A DNA stretch of 64,000 nt. It comes from a virus. The stretch lies in UHGV virus genome UHGV-1376965. One strand, written 5' to 3'. This document shows positions 9,431 through 17,384 of the stretch, piece by piece (position 1 is the first letter of the stretch; the number at the start of each line of letters is the position of its first letter). The position numbers and the translations under genes are program-made. Under the pieces are notes generated by a model that made no database searches, was not told the origin of the DNA, and saw nothing but the letters and a program-made list of their open reading frames with translations.

Positions 9431-10021
<591 letters not shown>

Positions 10022-10151
10022 TTAACCGATTCTACGAGTAGTCATTTGTTCATTGAGTAGGAATATTGTTGTCTGGGGGGTAATCAGTGTAGGTGGAATG
10101 AGGGATATGATATGGTTATCACATAATCAGGTTGTTTTGAGTAAAACAATA

Positions 10152-10178
10152 AAACGCCCTTTAATGGGCGTTTTTTTA
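10152..10178. terminator. Bidirectional rho-independent terminator
   Basis: AAAACGCCCTTTAATGGGCGTTTTTTT: GC stem with T-runs on both strands, just downstream of the sim-like operon. Confidence 0.7.
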
Positions 10179-10205
10179 AACTTAAATTGACTATCCTTTC
10201 AAATA

Positions 10206-11000
10206 CTATTTTAATTCTATGTAATTTTTAAATTCTCCCTCATATTTATACATGATGCTATCAAATCCTTCCATTACATCAACGAATTGTTGTGAACATT
10301 CCGGCTTCCAAGGCGTACACTTACGAACCATATCCATTTTTTTCTTATCCTTCGTTGTATCGACTAAGGATAGGTACCCTATAAAATTCATCATCTGAAC
10401 AGGATCTTGATTTGTGAATATATATTTGACGTTTTGCTTAGTAGGCGAAAAAGAATCAAAAGCAGGGAACATATATTCACCAGAAAAAGAGAGTGCAGCA
10501 TCAATGACGTCTGTTGCAGGAGTGCAGTTGCTCAGAATTGGCACTAAGCTAAAATTAGCACCGGAGCACACTGCATATATATCATCCCCTTTTTTTAGTT
10601 TTAACAGAGAGTCTTGCTTTGAATCCAATATTTTCAATTTGATATAATTTAGTGGCGTTGCATTTTCCCCTGGAGTAAATAATTCTACAATTGGTTTATT
10701 ATTCACCATTCTTATGGATTTTATTTCACCATACACAATTGGAATTGTGTTCCATTTTTCCTGAGCAGCAAATTCATTATCTTTAAAATCATTAACCAAC
10801 TCAGATGGCAAATGATAACCAAATTGATTGTTCATTGCTTTCGAAGCAAATCCAGACAAATAGAATGCCCTTACTAAATCATAATCTTTCTTTGAGGTAG
10901 AAAGCCAATCTGGCAATTTATTATCAGCTATCGCGCTTCCAGCAAAAATAGCACAACAAAATGTTATTACATTAAATAATTTCATTTTCCATTCACTCAT
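10206..11000 (-). CDS. Secreted protein, SimC-like (superinfection exclusion position); start may be at 10985
   Basis: N-terminal signal peptide MKLFNVITFCCAIFAGSAIA; AT-rich; position matches P1 sim region as I recall it. Confidence 0.6.
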   Translation of the reverse strand: MSEWKMKLFNVITFCCAIFAGSAIADNKLPDWLSTSKKDYDLVRAFYLSGFASKAMNNQFGYHLPSELVNDFKDNEFAAQEKWNTIPIVYGEIKSIRMVNNKPIVELFTPGENATPLNYIKLKILDSKQDSLLKLKKGDDIYAVCSGANFSLVPILSNCTPATDVIDAALSFSGEYMFPAFDSFSPTKQNVKYIFTNQDPVQMMNFIGYLSLVDTTKDKKKMDMVRKCTPWKPECSQQFVDVMEGFDSIMYKYEGEFKNYIELK

Positions 11001-11310
11001 TAATCGGTTTAAACTCACTAATTAATTCACCAAGACTATTTGGGTATGCTTTATAAATAACATACTCCGAAGAGCCATCTGAATATTGGTAAACCCCATA
11101 ACAGACCAGTTTATTTATTCCTTTCTGAATAGTTTTTTGATTATAAGAATCAACCACTGTTATTCCATATGACGATAATATTTCGTTATATTCTTCAATA
11201 AGAGCTTTTCTTGTTTCCACTGAATTGCAATCTACCTTCGAAAAGTCAACTTCATCAGCAAAAACATTAAATGTTAAAAAGGAAAGCACTAAAAACAAAC
11301 GAATCAGCAT
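10993..11310 (-). CDS. Small secreted protein, SimB-like
   Basis: Signal peptide MLIRLFLVLSFLTFNVFA; AGGAG ribosome-binding site upstream of the second ATG. Confidence 0.55.
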   Translation of the reverse strand: MLIRLFLVLSFLTFNVFADEVDFSKVDCNSVETRKALIEEYNEILSSYGITVVDSYNQKTIQKGINKLVCYGVYQYSDGSSEYVIYKAYPNSLGELISEFKPINE

Positions 11311-11331
11311 AAATCCACTCCTACGCATGGA

Positions 11332-11463
11332 TTAATAGTCATTGATCGCAAAGGCGTAAACGTGCCCAAGGTATTTCGTATAATCGGTACAAATCTCCTT
11401 TACGCTTGATGCTGCATTAACAGTCCCAGCCATAAATAATAACGGTAGTAATAGTTTTCTCAT
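11332..11463 (-). CDS. 43-aa secreted peptide (SimA-like position)
   Basis: MRKLLLPLLFMAGTVNAASSVKEICTDYTKYLGHVYAFAINDY; signal-peptide-like N-terminus; below the ORF-track length cutoff. Confidence 0.4.
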   Translation of the reverse strand: MRKLLLPLLFMAGTVNAASSVKEICTDYTKYLGHVYAFAINDY

Positions 11464-11559
11464 TATAACCTCACCTGCCTTATAACTCATTTAGGGTACA
11501 TATTTTCGCCTTTAAAAAAAAGAGGTTATTAGATCCAACTGTGTATTTATTAAACAAAT

Positions 11560-11576
11560 AATGCTCTAATAAATTT
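11560..11576 (+). promoter_or_regulatory. C1-operator-like 17-mer (AATGCTCTAATAAATTT) upstream of c4-icd-ant
   Basis: 16 of 17 match to ATTGCTCTAATAAATTT, which I recall as the P1 C1 repressor operator consensus. Confidence 0.65.
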
Positions 11577-11762
11577 GTATTTTTAAGTCGCGAATGCTAT
11601 CTTTTCGCATCATATTGACCTTTTAATCGTTCAGGCTTATAGTTCCACCGTCGTAGCAAATTCTGCGACCGGGTTTGACAGCCTGAATGTTAGTGCGGAC
11701 AACCGCAGATTTCCGATATTGCGGTATTTTTGTGTCCGTAAACCGCGTTACGCCCGAATTAT

Positions 11763-11839
11763 GGTGGGGCGTGATGGGGAGGCTTCGGCCTGCTGGTTTC
11801 ACTAACGCCAGTCTGTCAACCCTGTCACGTCCTGCCACC
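11763..11839 (+). ncRNA. c4: c4-like antisense RNA, 77 nt, tRNA-like ends GGTGG...CCACC
   Basis: 77-nt segment with complementary 5' and 3' ends; internal TTCACTAAC and CTGTCAA are complementary to GTTAGTGAGG (icd ribosome-binding site) and TTGACAG just downstream. Confidence 0.6.
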
Positions 11840-11889
11840 TGTTTGACAGCGGGTAGCAGGTTGTTAAACCTGTTAGTGAGGCCGTAACT

Positions 11890-14994: not shown

Positions 14995-15011
14995 ATTGCT
15001 CTAATTATAAC
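14995..15011 (+). promoter_or_regulatory. Degenerate C1-operator-like 17-mer (ATTGCTCTAATTATAAC)
   Basis: 13 of 17 match to the operator consensus, immediately after the repL stop. Confidence 0.4.
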
Positions 15012-15159
15012 CATGCATACTTTCAACACCTCTAGTTTGCCATGAGGAAAACTCATAGGCGTCCTGGTAAGATGACGTAGTTAGCAAATCAGAACGTCCA
15101 ATTATTGCAATTAATAAACAACTAACGGACAATTCTACCTAACAATAAGTGGAGTTAAC

Positions 15160-15864
15160 ATGTTGAACCGAAGAACATTTAATGTATTCTGCGATGAATC
15201 CTGTCACCTACTAAATGATCATAATAAAGTCATGGTATTGGGTGCGCTTTGGTGTCCTGGCACTATCACAAAAAAAATTGCTAGAGACATCAAGGGATTA
15301 AAATTAAAACACAATTTAAAACCTGATTTCGAAATCAAGTGGACTAAAGTATCTGCGTCCAAAGTTGAATTTTACTTAGAGGTCGTAGATTACTTCTTCA
15401 GCAACCCAGCATTGCGCTTTAGAGGTGTTGTTGTTCCTGATAAAGAGCAACTGGACCATGCTCGATTCCATCAAGATCATAATACTTTCTATTATAAGAT
15501 GTTTTTTTATGTCTTAAAAAACATAATAGAAAGTAACAACACATACAATATCTACCTAGATATAAAAGATACTTTAGGTATTGAAAAAATTGAGAAATTA
15601 AGAGGAGTTCTTCACAATGATCGCTATGATTACAATCATGAGTCGATAAACAGAATTCAACATATACGATCTCATGAAGTGCAACAATTGCAGCTAACGG
15701 ATCTTTTCATTGGTGCGTTAGGCTACGTTCATCGAGGAATGAATAGCAACGCGGGAAAAATCCAAGTCATAAACAGGATAAAATCACATACAAACAGGGA
15801 GTTACTAAAAAGCACTCTTCCAACAGAAAGTAAATTTAATATTTTCGTGTGGGAGGCTCGCTGA
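15160..15864 (+). CDS. DUF3800-like protein (N-terminal FNVFCDES motif)
   Basis: 234 aa; GGAG ribosome-binding site 7 nt upstream; strongly AT-rich; N-terminal D-E-S signature resembles DUF3800. Confidence 0.7.
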   Translation: MLNRRTFNVFCDESCHLLNDHNKVMVLGALWCPGTITKKIARDIKGLKLKHNLKPDFEIKWTKVSASKVEFYLEVVDYFFSNPALRFRGVVVPDKEQLDHARFHQDHNTFYYKMFFYVLKNIIESNNTYNIYLDIKDTLGIEKIEKLRGVLHNDRYDYNHESINRIQHIRSHEVQQLQLTDLFIGALGYVHRGMNSNAGKIQVINRIKSHTNRELLKSTLPTESKFNIFVWEAR

Positions 15865-16328
15865 TGCTTCAAATGCCAGATTTATTGTACTTCAATGGAA
15901 GTTGGCAAGAGTATATAGACGATGTATATGATGTTGTTAGAGAAGATATTTTAATCTCTAATATAACGTTTAAGGGTCTCCCTGTTCGATTACGTTATTC
16001 ACCGGAATATGATGGGAAAGAGTTCGGATTTTGGCATTTAGTATCAGAGGGAAAAATAGAAGAAGAACGAATACCTGATCTTGAACGGTGTAAGCGGATC
16101 CGCTGGATCGCGCATATGATAAGGAATTATGACCATTGCGATATATCATGTTGGTCTGAAAGACGAGGACCAACTGAAGAGTGGGTAATCTGGAACGAGT
16201 GTGAAAACTACGTTGTTGTGCTATCCGCACGTAGAGACTATTGGCTTCTCAAAACAGCCTATGTTGTAACCTATGACAGTAAAATCAGAACACTCAAACA
16301 AAGCAGAAAAAGAGCACTTGGGACATAA
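15864..16328 (+). CDS. Hypothetical Cys/His-rich protein, translationally coupled partner of the DUF3800-like gene
   Basis: ATG shares its A with the upstream TGA stop (TGATG overlap); about 154 aa; no recognisable domain. Confidence 0.6.
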   Translation: MLQMPDLLYFNGSWQEYIDDVYDVVREDILISNITFKGLPVRLRYSPEYDGKEFGFWHLVSEGKIEEERIPDLERCKRIRWIAHMIRNYDHCDISCWSERRGPTEEWVIWNECENYVVVLSARRDYWLLKTAYVVTYDSKIRTLKQSRKRALGT

Positions 16329-16332
16329 AAAA

Positions 16333-16372
16333 GCTGAACCCGACACATATTGCTATGTATCGGGTTCGATCG
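16333..16372. terminator. Bidirectional hairpin terminator between convergent genes
   Basis: GAACCCGACACAT...ATGTATCGGGTTC stem; T-run on the minus strand. Confidence 0.55.
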
Positions 16373-16494
16373 CTCTTTCTACGCATGGTAGATGAGTAAG
16401 GTAAATCTAACCGATCTACTTTAGCTTTTCAATAGCTAGCTATAACTTTCCGCACATATTCTTCTGATAATTCCAGTATGGCGGTTGGGTTTTC

Positions 16495-16791
16495 TTATGC
16501 TTTCCTGCGCAGAGGCGCACACTTATTCAGCAATAATAAATGTAATTCTTTGTTATCCCTAAGTATTTCGACACACCAATATCGTAACGTGTTCACTTCA
16601 AGTGTAGCCAGCACCTTATGTCGAAGTCCTCCCTCCCCTGCACATAACGATGGCCGACATTCTGCTAAGGCACATAACCATGTATTGGCATCATAGAGAA
16701 TCCAATAATGCTCCTCTGAAATAGTTTTGCATCCAATTATTTCGAATCTTCGTTCTATCGTTTCAGGAGAGTATGAAAAATCAATTTCCAT
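16495..16791 (-). CDS. Hypothetical 98-aa protein (orphan gene)
   Basis: ORF bounded by terminators on both sides. Confidence 0.45.
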   Translation of the reverse strand: MEIDFSYSPETIERRFEIIGCKTISEEHYWILYDANTWLCALAECRPSLCAGEGGLRHKVLATLEVNTLRYWCVEILRDNKELHLLLLNKCAPLRRKA

Positions 16792-16835
16792 AATATGCTC
16801 AAAATTTCGCTATACCGGCATAATTTAAGCACAAA

Positions 16836-16860
16836 AAAGCTCCCGTAGGAGCTTTAAAAT
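16836..16860 (-). terminator. Rho-independent terminator after the tail gene operon
   Basis: AAAAGCTCCCGTAGGAGCTTTAAAAT; minus strand reads hairpin then TTTTTT. Confidence 0.65.
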
Positions 16861-16874
16861 ACAAGGGGTGACTC

Positions 16875-17384
16875 TTAATCCCACTCAATCCAGTTGTAAA
16901 CGATACGAAGTGACGGGCGCACAGCGGCAGTCACATCTTCGGTACTAAAGTCGATTGCATCACTGTAGATTTTGCAGTCCAACATTTCAATTGTTGTAGC
17001 AGCTTTTGTCACAGCGTTAACCCCGGAAGATTTGGATTCAGGGGTAGCAGCCATCGTGATATCAACATAGTCCTTCGCCGCAATGCGATCCTTGATGAAC
17101 TGAAGAATATCGCCTTCGATAGTCTCCACGCACTGGACCTGGATTTCCCCAGAGTTTCGAATTGGTCCGTGCTGGTTGAACTTCACACCATTCGGACCAT
17201 AGTCCTCCACATCCTCGCGTGTCATTTCAGGGATTTGCGACGTGCGAACCAGTACGCTGATATCTTCATGGCCTGCAAAAGTGAGCTGGAATTCAGAAGA
17301 TACCAGTCGTTCGCCTTTGGCCGCGTTGGCAGTATAGCGGCCCTTAATAAATTTACGGTTTCCCTTAGTGTTATTGTGCCCCAT
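16875..17384 (-). CDS. Tail structural protein, possibly tail tube
   Basis: 169 aa, downstream of the sheath gene; C-terminus (IVYNWIEWD) reminiscent of myovirus tube proteins. Confidence 0.5.
   Translation of the reverse strand: MGHNNTKGNRKFIKGRYTANAAKGERLVSSEFQLTFAGHEDISVLVRTSQIPEMTREDVEDYGPNGVKFNQHGPIRNSGEIQVQCVETIEGDILQFIKDRIAAKDYVDITMAATPESKSSGVNAVTKAATTIEMLDCKIYSDAIDFSTEDVTAAVRPSLRIVYNWIEWD

Follow-up and report, generated by a model that had tools for sequence, protein, structure and literature searches.

A predicted, highly conserved small RNA gene accompanies rlfA and rlfB of P1-like phage-plasmids in a putative three-part defence module

The rlf locus and its slot

The rlfA and rlfB genes lie between repL and pmgF in the window analysed here, a 64,000-nt DNA of the UHGV virus genome UHGV-1376965, of which the stretch 15160-16791 was studied (Table 1). 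An earlier note on this DNA had described a two-gene cassette in the slot downstream of repL, which is real as judged from the open reading frames and the P1 alignment, and had asked whether the genes were rlfA/rlfB or a replacement. The alignments to P1, P7 and phage JL22 settled this question, the ORFs being P1's own rlfA and rlfB, with nucleotide identities of 96.6% to the P1 reference (over 1,899 nt), 97.4% to P7, in which the genes are called rapA and rapB, and 100% to JL22. Since the stretch is 96.6-100% identical to these three phages, the features of the locus are not chance occurrences. Moreover, the order repL-rlfA-rlfB-pmgF-bplB is common to the window and the P1 reference, and the pair comprises the same genes in the same order as rlfA/rlfB of P1 and rapA/rapB of P7, the proteins showing no difference. 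The foreign, AT-rich composition that had been claimed was also recovered, with a G+C content of 0.33-0.39 over positions 15000-16000 versus 0.44-0.55 in the flanks, and published work describes the rlfA-rlfB region of P1 as a low-GC variable region.

Table 1. Features of the rlf locus, in window coordinates
Feature	Coordinates	Strand	Details
Degenerate C1 operator (P1 Orlf / former Op55)	14995..15011	+	ATTGCTCTAATTATAAC, 4 nt past repL stop
Predicted weak promoter PrlfA	15105..15133	+	TTGCAA ... GACAAT, coordinates transferred from P1 annotation
rlfA	15160..15864	+	234 aa, DUF3800 protein, RNase HII-like fold
rlfB	15864..16328	+	154 aa, no Pfam family
Predicted sRNA gene	16327..16398	-	about 71 nt, convergent with rlfB; 5' ACUCAUCUACCAUGCGUAGAAAGAGCGAUCGAACCCGAUACAUAGCAAUAUGUGUCGGGUUCAGCUUUUUU 3'
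SL2, intrinsic terminator hairpin of sRNA	16336..16367	-	U-tract 16332-16327 overlaps rlfB stop codon
SL1, 5' stem-loop of sRNA	16373..16396	-	CUCAUCUACCAUGYGUAGAARGAG, nearly invariant across phyla
Predicted sRNA promoter	16404..16432	-	-35 TTGAAA (16432-16427), 17-nt spacer, -10 TAGATT (16409-16404)
pmgF	16495..16791	-	98 aa, annotated in P1; slot neighbour outside the module

Upstream of the pair, the presence of a degenerate C1-operator-like site had been proposed, and this is borne out by ATTGCTCTAATTATAAC, which matches the C1 operator consensus at 12 of 17 positions (the first 11 all perfect) and occupies the position of the protein_bind feature Orlf/Op55 in the P1 reference annotation; it is not among the C1 operator sites obtained when up to 3 mismatches are allowed. 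The predicted PrlfA, whose coordinates were transferred with the rlfA start as anchor, has 8/12 hexamer matches and was missed by the promoter scan.

The description of the slot as accessory is upheld by its content in other P1-like elements, where an IS element, a Lom-like protein or a Hok toxin is found; phages RCS47, SJ46 and phi456 carry such other cargo (a Hok/Gef toxin in phi456), and the cassette is present on 101 of 515 repL plasmids (approximately 20%). Furthermore, knock-down of rlfA and rlfB in P1 gave efficiencies of plating (EOP) of 1.3 and 0.88, close to 1, plaque formation being unaffected on the laboratory host. The P1 rlfA-rlfB cassette is accessory, not core, and dispensable for plaques.

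Beyond the pair lies pmgF, assigned to PHROG 7349, a PHROG of function unknown, and giving no PADLOC match. It had been described as a convergent orphan gene; its orientation was as claimed, but not its orphan status, as its N-terminal 65 residues share 43% identity with the 210-aa protein that phage SJ46 has in this slot. In view of this slot relative, and of bacterial RlfAB neighbours that are mostly R-M genes, pmgF was rejected as a third protein of the module.

RlfA, RlfB and their coupling

RlfA begins with MLNRRTFNVFCDESCH, and the DUF3800 membership suggested by its N-terminal D-E-S was supported by a profile search against PF12686, in which it scored 53.1 bits (cut-off 21; E 7.6e-14) over positions 1-148 of the 149-position profile. 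Residues D12-E13 (within FCDES), D134 and Q178-L-T-D181 are invariant in 36 homologues, so that RlfA has both the N-terminal D-E and the C-terminal QxxD motifs described for DUF3800, together with its RNase H-like fold. The four invariant carboxylates D12, E13, D134 and D181, candidates for the DEDD catalytic tetrad of RNase HII/H2, fall on the expected secondary-structure elements, the comparison being made at the level of elements. No RNase HII Pfam match was obtained at E up to 1, and no relative in PDB by sequence search. From the DUF3800 profile and the invariant residues, RlfA looks like an active enzyme, and we regard it as a putative one.

RlfB has no family in Pfam or NCBIfam, in agreement with the view that the second gene lacks a recognisable domain, and nothing related was found in PDB by sequence or by Foldseek; it weakly resembles RNases of the RelE/ParE/colicin-D type (BECR fold). 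The same protein had been called Cys/His-rich, which does not fit its composition of 4 Cys and 3 His in 154 residues. Zinc binding was also rejected on these low numbers, with H58 the sole invariant residue among the Cys and His of the homologues and C76 conserved in at least 90%.

The TGA stop of rlfA and the ATG of rlfB share one base (GCTGATGCTT; TGATG), as claimed, and the P1 annotation has the same junction. The pair is conserved among relatives: rlfB lies directly 3' of rlfA in all 79 assessable species genomes, from many phyla, and in 59 of 77 the rlfA stop codon overlaps the rlfB start.

The predicted small RNA gene

The module has a third, RNA component, which the earlier note had overlooked. 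When the sequences beyond rlfB were compared all against all, SL1 emerged, the 5' stem-loop of a predicted sRNA gene that is very highly conserved and previously unannotated in P1. A covariance model (R1) gave one hit on the 64-kb window, from 16398 to 16314 on the minus strand (59.7 bits, E 2.9e-15), and it also finds the sRNA in the P1 reference, where the interval from rlfB to pmgF carries no RNA annotation. The sRNA is single-copy in 94 of 96 related loci and in 79/79 RlfAB loci, among which none lacks it. Regarding conservation, RlfA and SL1 far exceed RlfB at 77/77 loci, the median identity across homologues being 50% for RlfA versus 34% for RlfB.

Several lines of evidence point to a structured RNA read from the minus strand. 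In the sRNA alignment 94.9% of cells are paired, with compensatory changes in 14 of 18 pairs and an MFE z-score of -6.7; read on the opposite strand, 161 G·U cells become A·C and pairing falls from 94.9% to 85.7%. Helix 1 of SL1 is 99.7% paired and alternates between U-A, C-G and U·G and between A-U and G·U, while the lower stem of SL2 has compensatory changes in all 10 pairs. The latter hairpin had been taken for a bidirectional terminator; the terminator scan passed it on the minus strand only (tail AGCTTTTTT), and the conserved 'C·A mismatch' of the plus strand reads as a U·G pair on its complement, indicating that SL2 is the terminator of the minus-strand sRNA.

The promoter scan predicted an sRNA start site at about 16397. 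Hexamers with at least 9/12 matches were found on the sRNA strand in 131 of 185 distinct sRNA copies, versus 8/185 when the same DNA was read on the other strand; in 107 of those 131, CUCAUC follows the end of the -10 element at 7-9 nt, the pattern of a conserved sigma-70 promoter with constant spacing. A 3'-UTR element of the rlfAB mRNA was rejected, since promoter, U-tract and G·U pairs all favour the sRNA strand. Other candidates discarded were an encoded peptide, given that length changes in the SL2 loop are not multiples of three and that the start site leaves no space for a ribosome-binding site, and a cassette end or recombination site, given the one copy per locus with no inverted partner upstream. 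In three loci (L116, L119 and L123) the sRNA is co-directional with rlfAB and has its own promoter there, which argues that it acts in trans.

Solo copies of the sRNA also occur, in approximately 20 of 73 metagenome loci collected motif first, and in E. coli 61 chromosomal places match the sRNA stretch only, two of which were inspected and are devoid of RlfA or RlfB.

Comparison with Rfam 15 gave no match to the sRNA when the whole window was searched at the gathering score, nothing relevant in three local searches at E up to 10 (including 161- and 171-nt stretches) and nothing relevant to the sRNA in 11 related loci at E up to 1; in the literature, the SL1 sequence retrieved unrelated primers only. 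DUF3800-associated RNAs have been described as DUF3800-I to -XI, drum and skipping-rope (Weinberg et al., 2017), and the rlfAB sRNA resembles them in being a structured RNA tied to DUF3800, with an intrinsic terminator and in either orientation. No DUF3800-* match was obtained in Rfam 15, which holds DUF3800-I and -IX (RF02969 and RF02968), a comparison covering those motifs that are curated in Rfam. Unlike these RNAs, the rlfAB module has an obligate protein partner for its DUF3800 gene.

Distribution, defence reading and alternatives

The module, composed of two proteins and one RNA, is strictly co-inherited, widely spread among bacteria and often positioned in type I R-M operons. It is present in at least 581 bacterial species genomes, with most RlfAB homologues in bacterial chromosomes. 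Type I R-M genes were found near 44 of 80 loci, sharing the strand of the locus with one exception, and embedding between hsdM/S and hsdR was seen for at least 12 of the 80; indeed, the commonest immediate neighbours of related loci are the HsdS, ResIII and HsdR families. An Anaerolineales locus lies inside hsdR-mazE-PIN-...-hsdM-hsdS, and a Citrobacter locus adjoins RhuM, SymE and a P4-like satellite. At most loci there is no space for repeats upstream of rlfA, which directly adjoins the gene before it.

Both proteins match the PADLOC candidate system PDC-M04, RlfA the PDC-M04A profile PDLC04353 (E 2.2e-95) and RlfB the PDC-M04B profile PDLC04355 (E 1.1e-51), and the genes are adjacent on one strand, with a one-base overlap. 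PDC-M04 is one of 145 PDC systems, which their authors call untested (Payne et al., 2024 preprint), the candidates having been picked as likely defence genes by their embedding in R-M operons ('guilt by embedding'); no paper in the literature searched mentions the name PDC-M04. The same A/B proteins are concerned here, and the type I R-M embedding was independently reproduced, but PDC-M04 is a two-protein candidate to which the P1 module adds an RNA, and the P1 module resides on a phage-plasmid, away from type I R-M genes, whereas PDC-M04 is embedded in type I R-M operons. In this context, the plausible defence role proposed earlier gains computational support, from PDC-M04 and from the R-M operon and P4-like satellite context, the defence itself being putative.

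Other known systems share some of these features. Convergent, 3'-overlapping antisense RNAs are found in type I TA systems such as txpA/ratA and bsrG/SR4 of B. subtilis. The likeness to type I TA and ToxIN lies in a small separate RNA beside a putative toxin, never missing and usually 3'-convergent; however, RlfA and RlfB are not small membrane peptides, as in type I TA, and the rlfAB RNA is not a tandem-repeat array, as in type III TA (ToxIN), being a single sRNA copy downstream of the proteins and usually convergent. The sRNA also differs from antisense antitoxins because its invariance across phyla is not required by antisense pairing alone, and in three loci it has no antisense overlap, unlike the convergent antisense RNAs. 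PrrC and RloC are anticodon nucleases embedded in type I R-M operons. PrrC is named as an embedded example in the PDC preprint (Payne et al., 2024), and both resemble the module in their position between hsd genes of one operon and in a possible RNase component; unlike them, RlfA and RlfB have no ABC-ATPase domain, and there is no sequence relationship. Type VII retrons combine a reverse transcriptase, msr/msd and a DUF3800 effector (Mestre et al., 2020), and share with the module a DUF3800 RNase H2-like protein and a dedicated non-coding nucleic acid. Nevertheless, retron DUF3800 proteins lack the Q of QxxD, whereas RlfA keeps Q178xxD181; the flanks in the window are repL and pmgF, with no reverse transcriptase, and reverse-transcriptase families are absent from the 25 commonest neighbour families at related loci.

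With moderate confidence, we propose that rlfA, rlfB and the sRNA form a putative three-part, toxin-antitoxin-like abortive-infection or defence module (PDC-M04). Its parts would be RlfA as an RNase HII-like DUF3800 nuclease, RlfB as a translationally coupled small partner and a separately transcribed sRNA, usually placed just past rlfB on the opposite strand. The constitutive sRNA would bind RlfA/RlfB through its invariant 5' stem-loop and keep the nuclease pair inactive; the sRNA would be lost or displaced once an infecting phage halts transcription of the host, breaks down RNA or targets the adjacent restriction system, and the freed RlfA would cut RNA or RNA-DNA hybrids, RlfB possibly RNA, stopping invader replication or cell growth. 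An antitoxin-like asymmetry is suggested because solo sRNA copies exist and RlfAB loci without sRNA do not, although such copies could be decay remnants instead of tolerated antitoxins, and the conservation of SL1 could serve a non-inhibitory role, as guide, cofactor or substrate. In Legionella Tn-seq, a strain-specific gene, assigned to DUF3800 as a whole, scored as essential alongside antitoxins, which is a lead and not a test. On P1, the module would protect the lysogen or exclude competitors, but lysogen protection fits less well if C1/Op55 control and kilA-repL read-through make rlfAB mainly lytic.

More tentatively, rlfAB-sRNA may be the first tractable case of a widespread RNA-protein immune or toxin class, in which the sRNA would be an essential cofactor of the DUF3800 nuclease and act as antidote, sensor or fixed guide, a joint reading that is possible but doubtful at present. 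If true, it would account for the unrelated structured RNAs that accompany DUF3800 genes throughout bacteria, a puzzle since 2017, and P1 would gain an unrecognised sRNA gene and a defence function. A defence role for the module would also bear on the ecology of P1-like phage-plasmids, elements that disseminate antibiotic-resistance genes as well. The predicted RNA gene, new in a phage that has been studied very thoroughly, ties the protein pair to the link between DUF3800 and structured RNAs. Furthermore, no function of rlfA or rlfB has been demonstrated since P1 was annotated, and the old question is now testable via the sRNA, P1 and E. coli being easily manipulated.

Among the alternatives, a toxin with an RNA antitoxin may act in addiction or stabilisation only, keeping the mobile element or R-M operon by post-segregational killing. 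The occurrence of sRNA without RlfAB and never the reverse, the location of the module on plasmids, satellites and islands, and the Hok/Gef toxin of phi456 in the same P1 slot would all agree with it, as would the standing of PDC-M04 as a candidate by embedding, with defence putative. Nevertheless, embedding between hsdS and hsdR in many phyla is the pattern by which PDC systems were selected for likely defence, and P1 carries phd-doc as an addiction system of its own. This restricted role appears unlikely to us, although addiction and defence are not mutually exclusive.

Still less probable is an RNA-directed nuclease, in which the invariant sRNA would be a fixed guide or scaffold and activator of an RNase H/PIWI-like RlfA, bringing it to a conserved nucleic-acid target. 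SL1 and RlfA are indeed both very highly conserved and co-inherited, and the literature associates DUF3800 genes with structured RNAs and Cas12 loci; however, MID or PAZ-like domains are absent from the 234-aa RlfA, the conserved part of the RNA forms a hairpin, 99.7% paired, instead of offering a single-stranded seed, and solo sRNA genes without RlfA are simpler under the antidote reading.

An anti-defence or take-over role, in which RlfA would destroy host immune RNA-DNA hybrids (retron msDNA, R-loops) during P1 lytic growth, strikes us as very unlikely. The cassette follows kilA-repL and is preceded by a C1 operator, its induction together with early replication genes is reported for P1vir infection, and RNase H chemistry would suit RNA-DNA hybrid substrates; against this, most homologues are chromosomal and either lie within type I R-M operons or share their orientation, the P1 cassette had no plaque phenotype on the laboratory host, and the dedicated sRNA would be left without a role.

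Finally, processing of a primer or R-loop at oriL by RlfA/RlfB for RepL-driven lytic replication is highly improbable and largely refuted by distribution: although the genes adjoin repL/oriL, are annotated in P1 as 'possibly associated with lytic replication' and include an RNase H-like fold compatible with this role, repL is absent from the gene tables of the Anaerolineales and Citrobacter loci, the commonest neighbours of 63 further loci, drawn from many phyla, include no replication-protein family, the cassette is missing from approximately 80% of repL plasmids, the knock-down EOP values were 1.3 and 0.88, and RCS47, SJ46 and phi456 carry other cargo in the slot. The name of the genes implies a replication role without evidence, and their distribution argues against such a role.

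The P1 cassette and its slot

The window comes from a P1-like phage-plasmid. Nucleotide comparison of positions 15000-16900 gave 100% identity to phage JL22, 97.4% to P7 (where the genes go by rapA/rapB) and, for the P1 reference, 96.6%; the P1 record annotates rlfA, rlfB and pmgF between repL and bplB. The window genes are thus rlfA and rlfB themselves, which answers a question that the earlier note had left open and rules out a replacement at this slot. The open reading frames described there, with their TGA/ATG overlap, were recovered in the window, as was the AT-richness of the cassette (G+C 0.33-0.39, against 0.44-0.55 in flanking DNA); the degenerate C1-operator-like site upstream coincides with the Orlf/Op55 position annotated in P1, and the DUF3800 assignment of RlfA is borne out by a Pfam match above threshold. 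Other descriptions had to be revised, since RlfB, called Cys/His-rich, has four Cys and three His, among which H58 alone is invariant; the supposed bidirectional terminator scores as a terminator on the minus strand only; and the pmgF product, considered an orphan, is homologous to a longer protein that phage SJ46 encodes at this slot.

Features of the rlfAB cassette in the window, and solo RNA copies (L245 and L246, comparison loci with their own coordinates)
Feature	Location	Strand	Details
C1-operator-like site	14995-15011		ATTGCTCTAATTATAAC; 12/17 consensus positions matched
rlfA	15160-15864	+	234 aa; N-terminus MLNRRTFNVFCDESCH
rlfB	15864-16328	+	154 aa; ATG shares one base with rlfA TGA
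predicted sRNA	~16397 to 16327	-	71 nt; SL1, short linker, SL2, U-tract
sRNA promoter	16432-16404	-	TTGAAA-17-TAGATT
pmgF	16495-16791	-	opposite strand to rlfAB
solo sRNA	L245:4987-5071		E. coli chromosome NZ_CP051738; 46.6 bits
solo sRNA	L246:4987-5071		E. coli chromosome NZ_CP025328; 44.2 bits

In P1, rlfAB is accessory and not a core replication function. Published work lists rlfA-rlfB-pmgF as one of eight low-GC variable regions of P1-like elements, reports IS-mediated replacements, and gives plating efficiencies upon CRISPRi knock-down of 1.3 (rlfA), 0.88 (rlfB) and 1.2 (pmgF). Moreover, this repL occurs on 515 PLSDB plasmids and the cassette on just 101. The slot holds an IS605-type orfB with one gene of unknown function in RCS47, a Lom-like protein with two such genes in SJ46, and in phi456 (OR339795.1; L012:4271-4426) an unannotated gene for a 51-aa Hok/Gef-family toxin (Pfam PF01848, E 2.4e-22). 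Comparison of phi456 with the window thus indicates that slot cargo, of toxin or RNA-antitoxin type, differs among P1-like elements.

A predicted small RNA gene downstream of rlfB

When the stretch following rlfB was compared across loci, it showed a 24-nt block that hardly differs between unrelated phyla and, ahead of this block, a hairpin that keeps its pairing despite sequence variation. Because terminator, promoter, strand-specific pairing and G·U pairs all agree, this DNA is read at the sequence level as the gene of a small RNA (sRNA) running opposite to rlfAB. The A-run ahead of the hairpin is a U-tract behind it on the other strand, the only one on which the terminator scan was positive. 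A sigma-70 match of at least 9/12 (TTGACA/TTGACT, 17 nt, TATAAT/TATACT/GATAAT) was present on the sRNA strand in 131 of 185 distinct copies, with the -10 ending 7-9 nt ahead of the conserved block in 107 of those 131; reading the same DNA on the opposite strand gave 8 of 185. Pairing held in 94.9% of 1,541 cells (83.3% when shuffled, 41-53% in slid controls), with compensatory changes in 14 of 18 pairs, and 161 cells are G·U; read on the rlfAB-sense strand these become A·C mismatches, and the paired share drops to 85.7%.

A covariance model (R1), built from 86 sequences, matched the window once (16398 to 16314, minus strand, 59.7 bits) and 94 of 96 related loci exactly once, the other two ending too early to judge, with no match on P1-like elements lacking the cassette. 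The predicted RNA (folding z-score -6.7) has at its 5' end the stem-loop SL1, CUCAUCUACCAUGYGUAGAARGAG, while SL2 is its terminator hairpin and the U-tract shares bases with the stop codon of rlfB. When the window copy (16327-16398, minus strand) is folded to minimum free energy, SL1 is not formed, its 3' half AGAAAGAGC being paired with the terminator tail GCUUUUUU. This may reflect a second conformation, or else a folding artefact of using one sequence alone. Rfam 15 holds no family matching this RNA, though DUF3800-I and -IX are included, and a literature search found no paper containing its sequence. The DUF3800-associated RNAs described in 2017 are frequently followed by a terminator and lie in either orientation; our sRNA fits that published description.

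In three viral contigs (IMG/VR; L116, L119 and L123) the sRNA gene is inverted and co-directional with rlfAB, ~80-110 nt downstream of rlfB (e.g., L119:5310-5391), with its own promoter (TTGACA-17-TATACT). Antisense pairing to the rlfAB transcript would thus be dispensable, and the RNA is predicted to act in trans. Furthermore, a motif-first metagenome search placed rlfB just upstream in 53 of 73 assessable loci, while about 20 had none or fragments, next to integrases and TnpB-like or IS200-like genes. In 5,426 complete E. coli genomes, 61 chromosomal places matched the sRNA stretch only, and two inspected sites had neither RlfA nor RlfB in any frame. Those two copies overlap ORFs annotated as "hypothetical protein", and a block of three genes for large hypothetical proteins lies ~1.1 kb away; metagenome contig Ga0163144_10108349 has two different copies 270 nt apart (L169:3181-3256 and L169:3450-3525). 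Conversely, RlfAB proteins without the sRNA were never seen among the loci examined, and persistence of the RNA without the proteins, never the reverse, is the pattern expected of an RNA antidote.

Proteins, genomic neighbourhood and proposed function

RlfA belongs to a large, unusually conserved family (5,364 database matches), with relatives ~50% identical even in Bacteroidota, Nitrospirota, Chloroflexota, cyanobacteria and others. Its 47 invariant columns among 36 diverse sequences, including D12, E13, D134, D137, Q178 and D181, agree with the RNase H2-like fold that published remarks ascribe to DUF3800; a sequence search for a relative of solved structure returned none. RlfB matched no family in Pfam or NCBIfam, and an exhaustive profile search placed it among stand-alone proteins of ~155-180 aa (1,776 clusters at 50% identity). 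Its predicted model (pLDDT 91.7) packs helices against a four-stranded antiparallel sheet. A RelE/colicin-D-like RNase identity is a lead and not a result. RlfB homologues are often named "oxidoreductase" in RefSeq/NCBI, and "replication protein" in the P1 RefSeq record; neither name found support in profile or fold searches.

Scanning one genome per species gave at least 581 loci with close RlfA relatives, 80 of which were retained. Wherever the locus extends far enough (79 of 79 cases), rlfA is followed by a gene for an RlfB homologue in the same orientation, and rlfA stop and rlfB start overlap in 59 of 77, mostly as ATGA or TGATG; RlfA is always the better conserved (median identity 50.4% versus 34.4%). 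HsdS (14), ResIII (12) and HsdR_N (10), then further restriction-modification (R-M) methylases, were the commonest families among 125 immediately adjacent genes. With iterated profiles, type I R-M genes lay within 7 kb of 44 of the 80 loci and, with one exception, shared their strand. At least 12 loci have hsdM/hsdS on one side and hsdR on the other, and the start of rlfA often coincides with the stop codon of hsdS. An Anaerolineales operon reads hsdR-mazE-PIN-rlfA-rlfB-hsdM-hsdS: in MAG JAKPEQ010000051 (L002:3688-11618), a single type I R-M operon has two inserts between hsdR and hsdM, the mazE-PIN toxin-antitoxin pair and the rlfA-rlfB-sRNA module. Citrobacter loci adjoin RhuM, SymE and a P4-like satellite.

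As a pair of genes, the cassette has been described before: under the names rlfA/rlfB in P1, in RefSeq as a "DUF3800 domain-containing protein", and in PADLOC as PDC-M04, whose A and B profiles RlfA and RlfB match strongly. The PDC systems are 145 candidates, selected for embedding in BREX, DISARM or type I R-M loci, which their authors call untested; our literature search found no paper naming PDC-M04, and the few mentions of rlfA/rlfB assign no function. What appears to be new is the obligate sRNA gene, which is missing from the P1 annotation and from Rfam, its strict three-way linkage with rlfA and rlfB, the reassignment of the "terminator" and the evidence against a replication role. The module is of interest since experiments on it can be done directly in P1 and E. 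coli.

In this context, we propose that the three parts form a toxin-antitoxin-like module for abortive infection or defence, with the sRNA restraining a predicted RlfA/RlfB nuclease. SL1 hardly varies, even in its stem, which suggests that a protein recognises its sequence, and RlfA is the component whose conservation matches that of SL1. A Legionella Tn-seq study scored as essential, alongside antitoxins, a strain-specific DUF3800 gene, which may be of another subfamily than RlfA. The three-part composition is very probable and a defence or toxin-antitoxin-like role reasonably so, while the specific mechanism of release is tentative. A pure addiction module is unlikely, a nuclease directed by the sRNA more unlikely still, and an anti-defence function improbable; a replication accessory, largely excluded because of the module's distribution, is the least credible.

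Other features of the window

Between bplB and pmgF lies a second intrinsic-terminator-like hairpin (16836-16855, minus strand; AAAGCTCC TACG GGAGCTTT, then TTTGTGCTTA), so pmgF is probably transcribed from its own promoter and not jointly with bplB. A second low-GC stretch (0.31-0.36) occupies 10000-11600, immediately upstream of c4; in the literature, simABC figures as a further variable low-GC region of P1-like elements. Rfam gathering-score matches on the plus strand (11637-11689, 11757-11842, 33281-33431 and 35435-35507) correspond to c4-a1b1 targets, the C4 antisense RNA and three tRNA genes, all known kinds of P1 feature.
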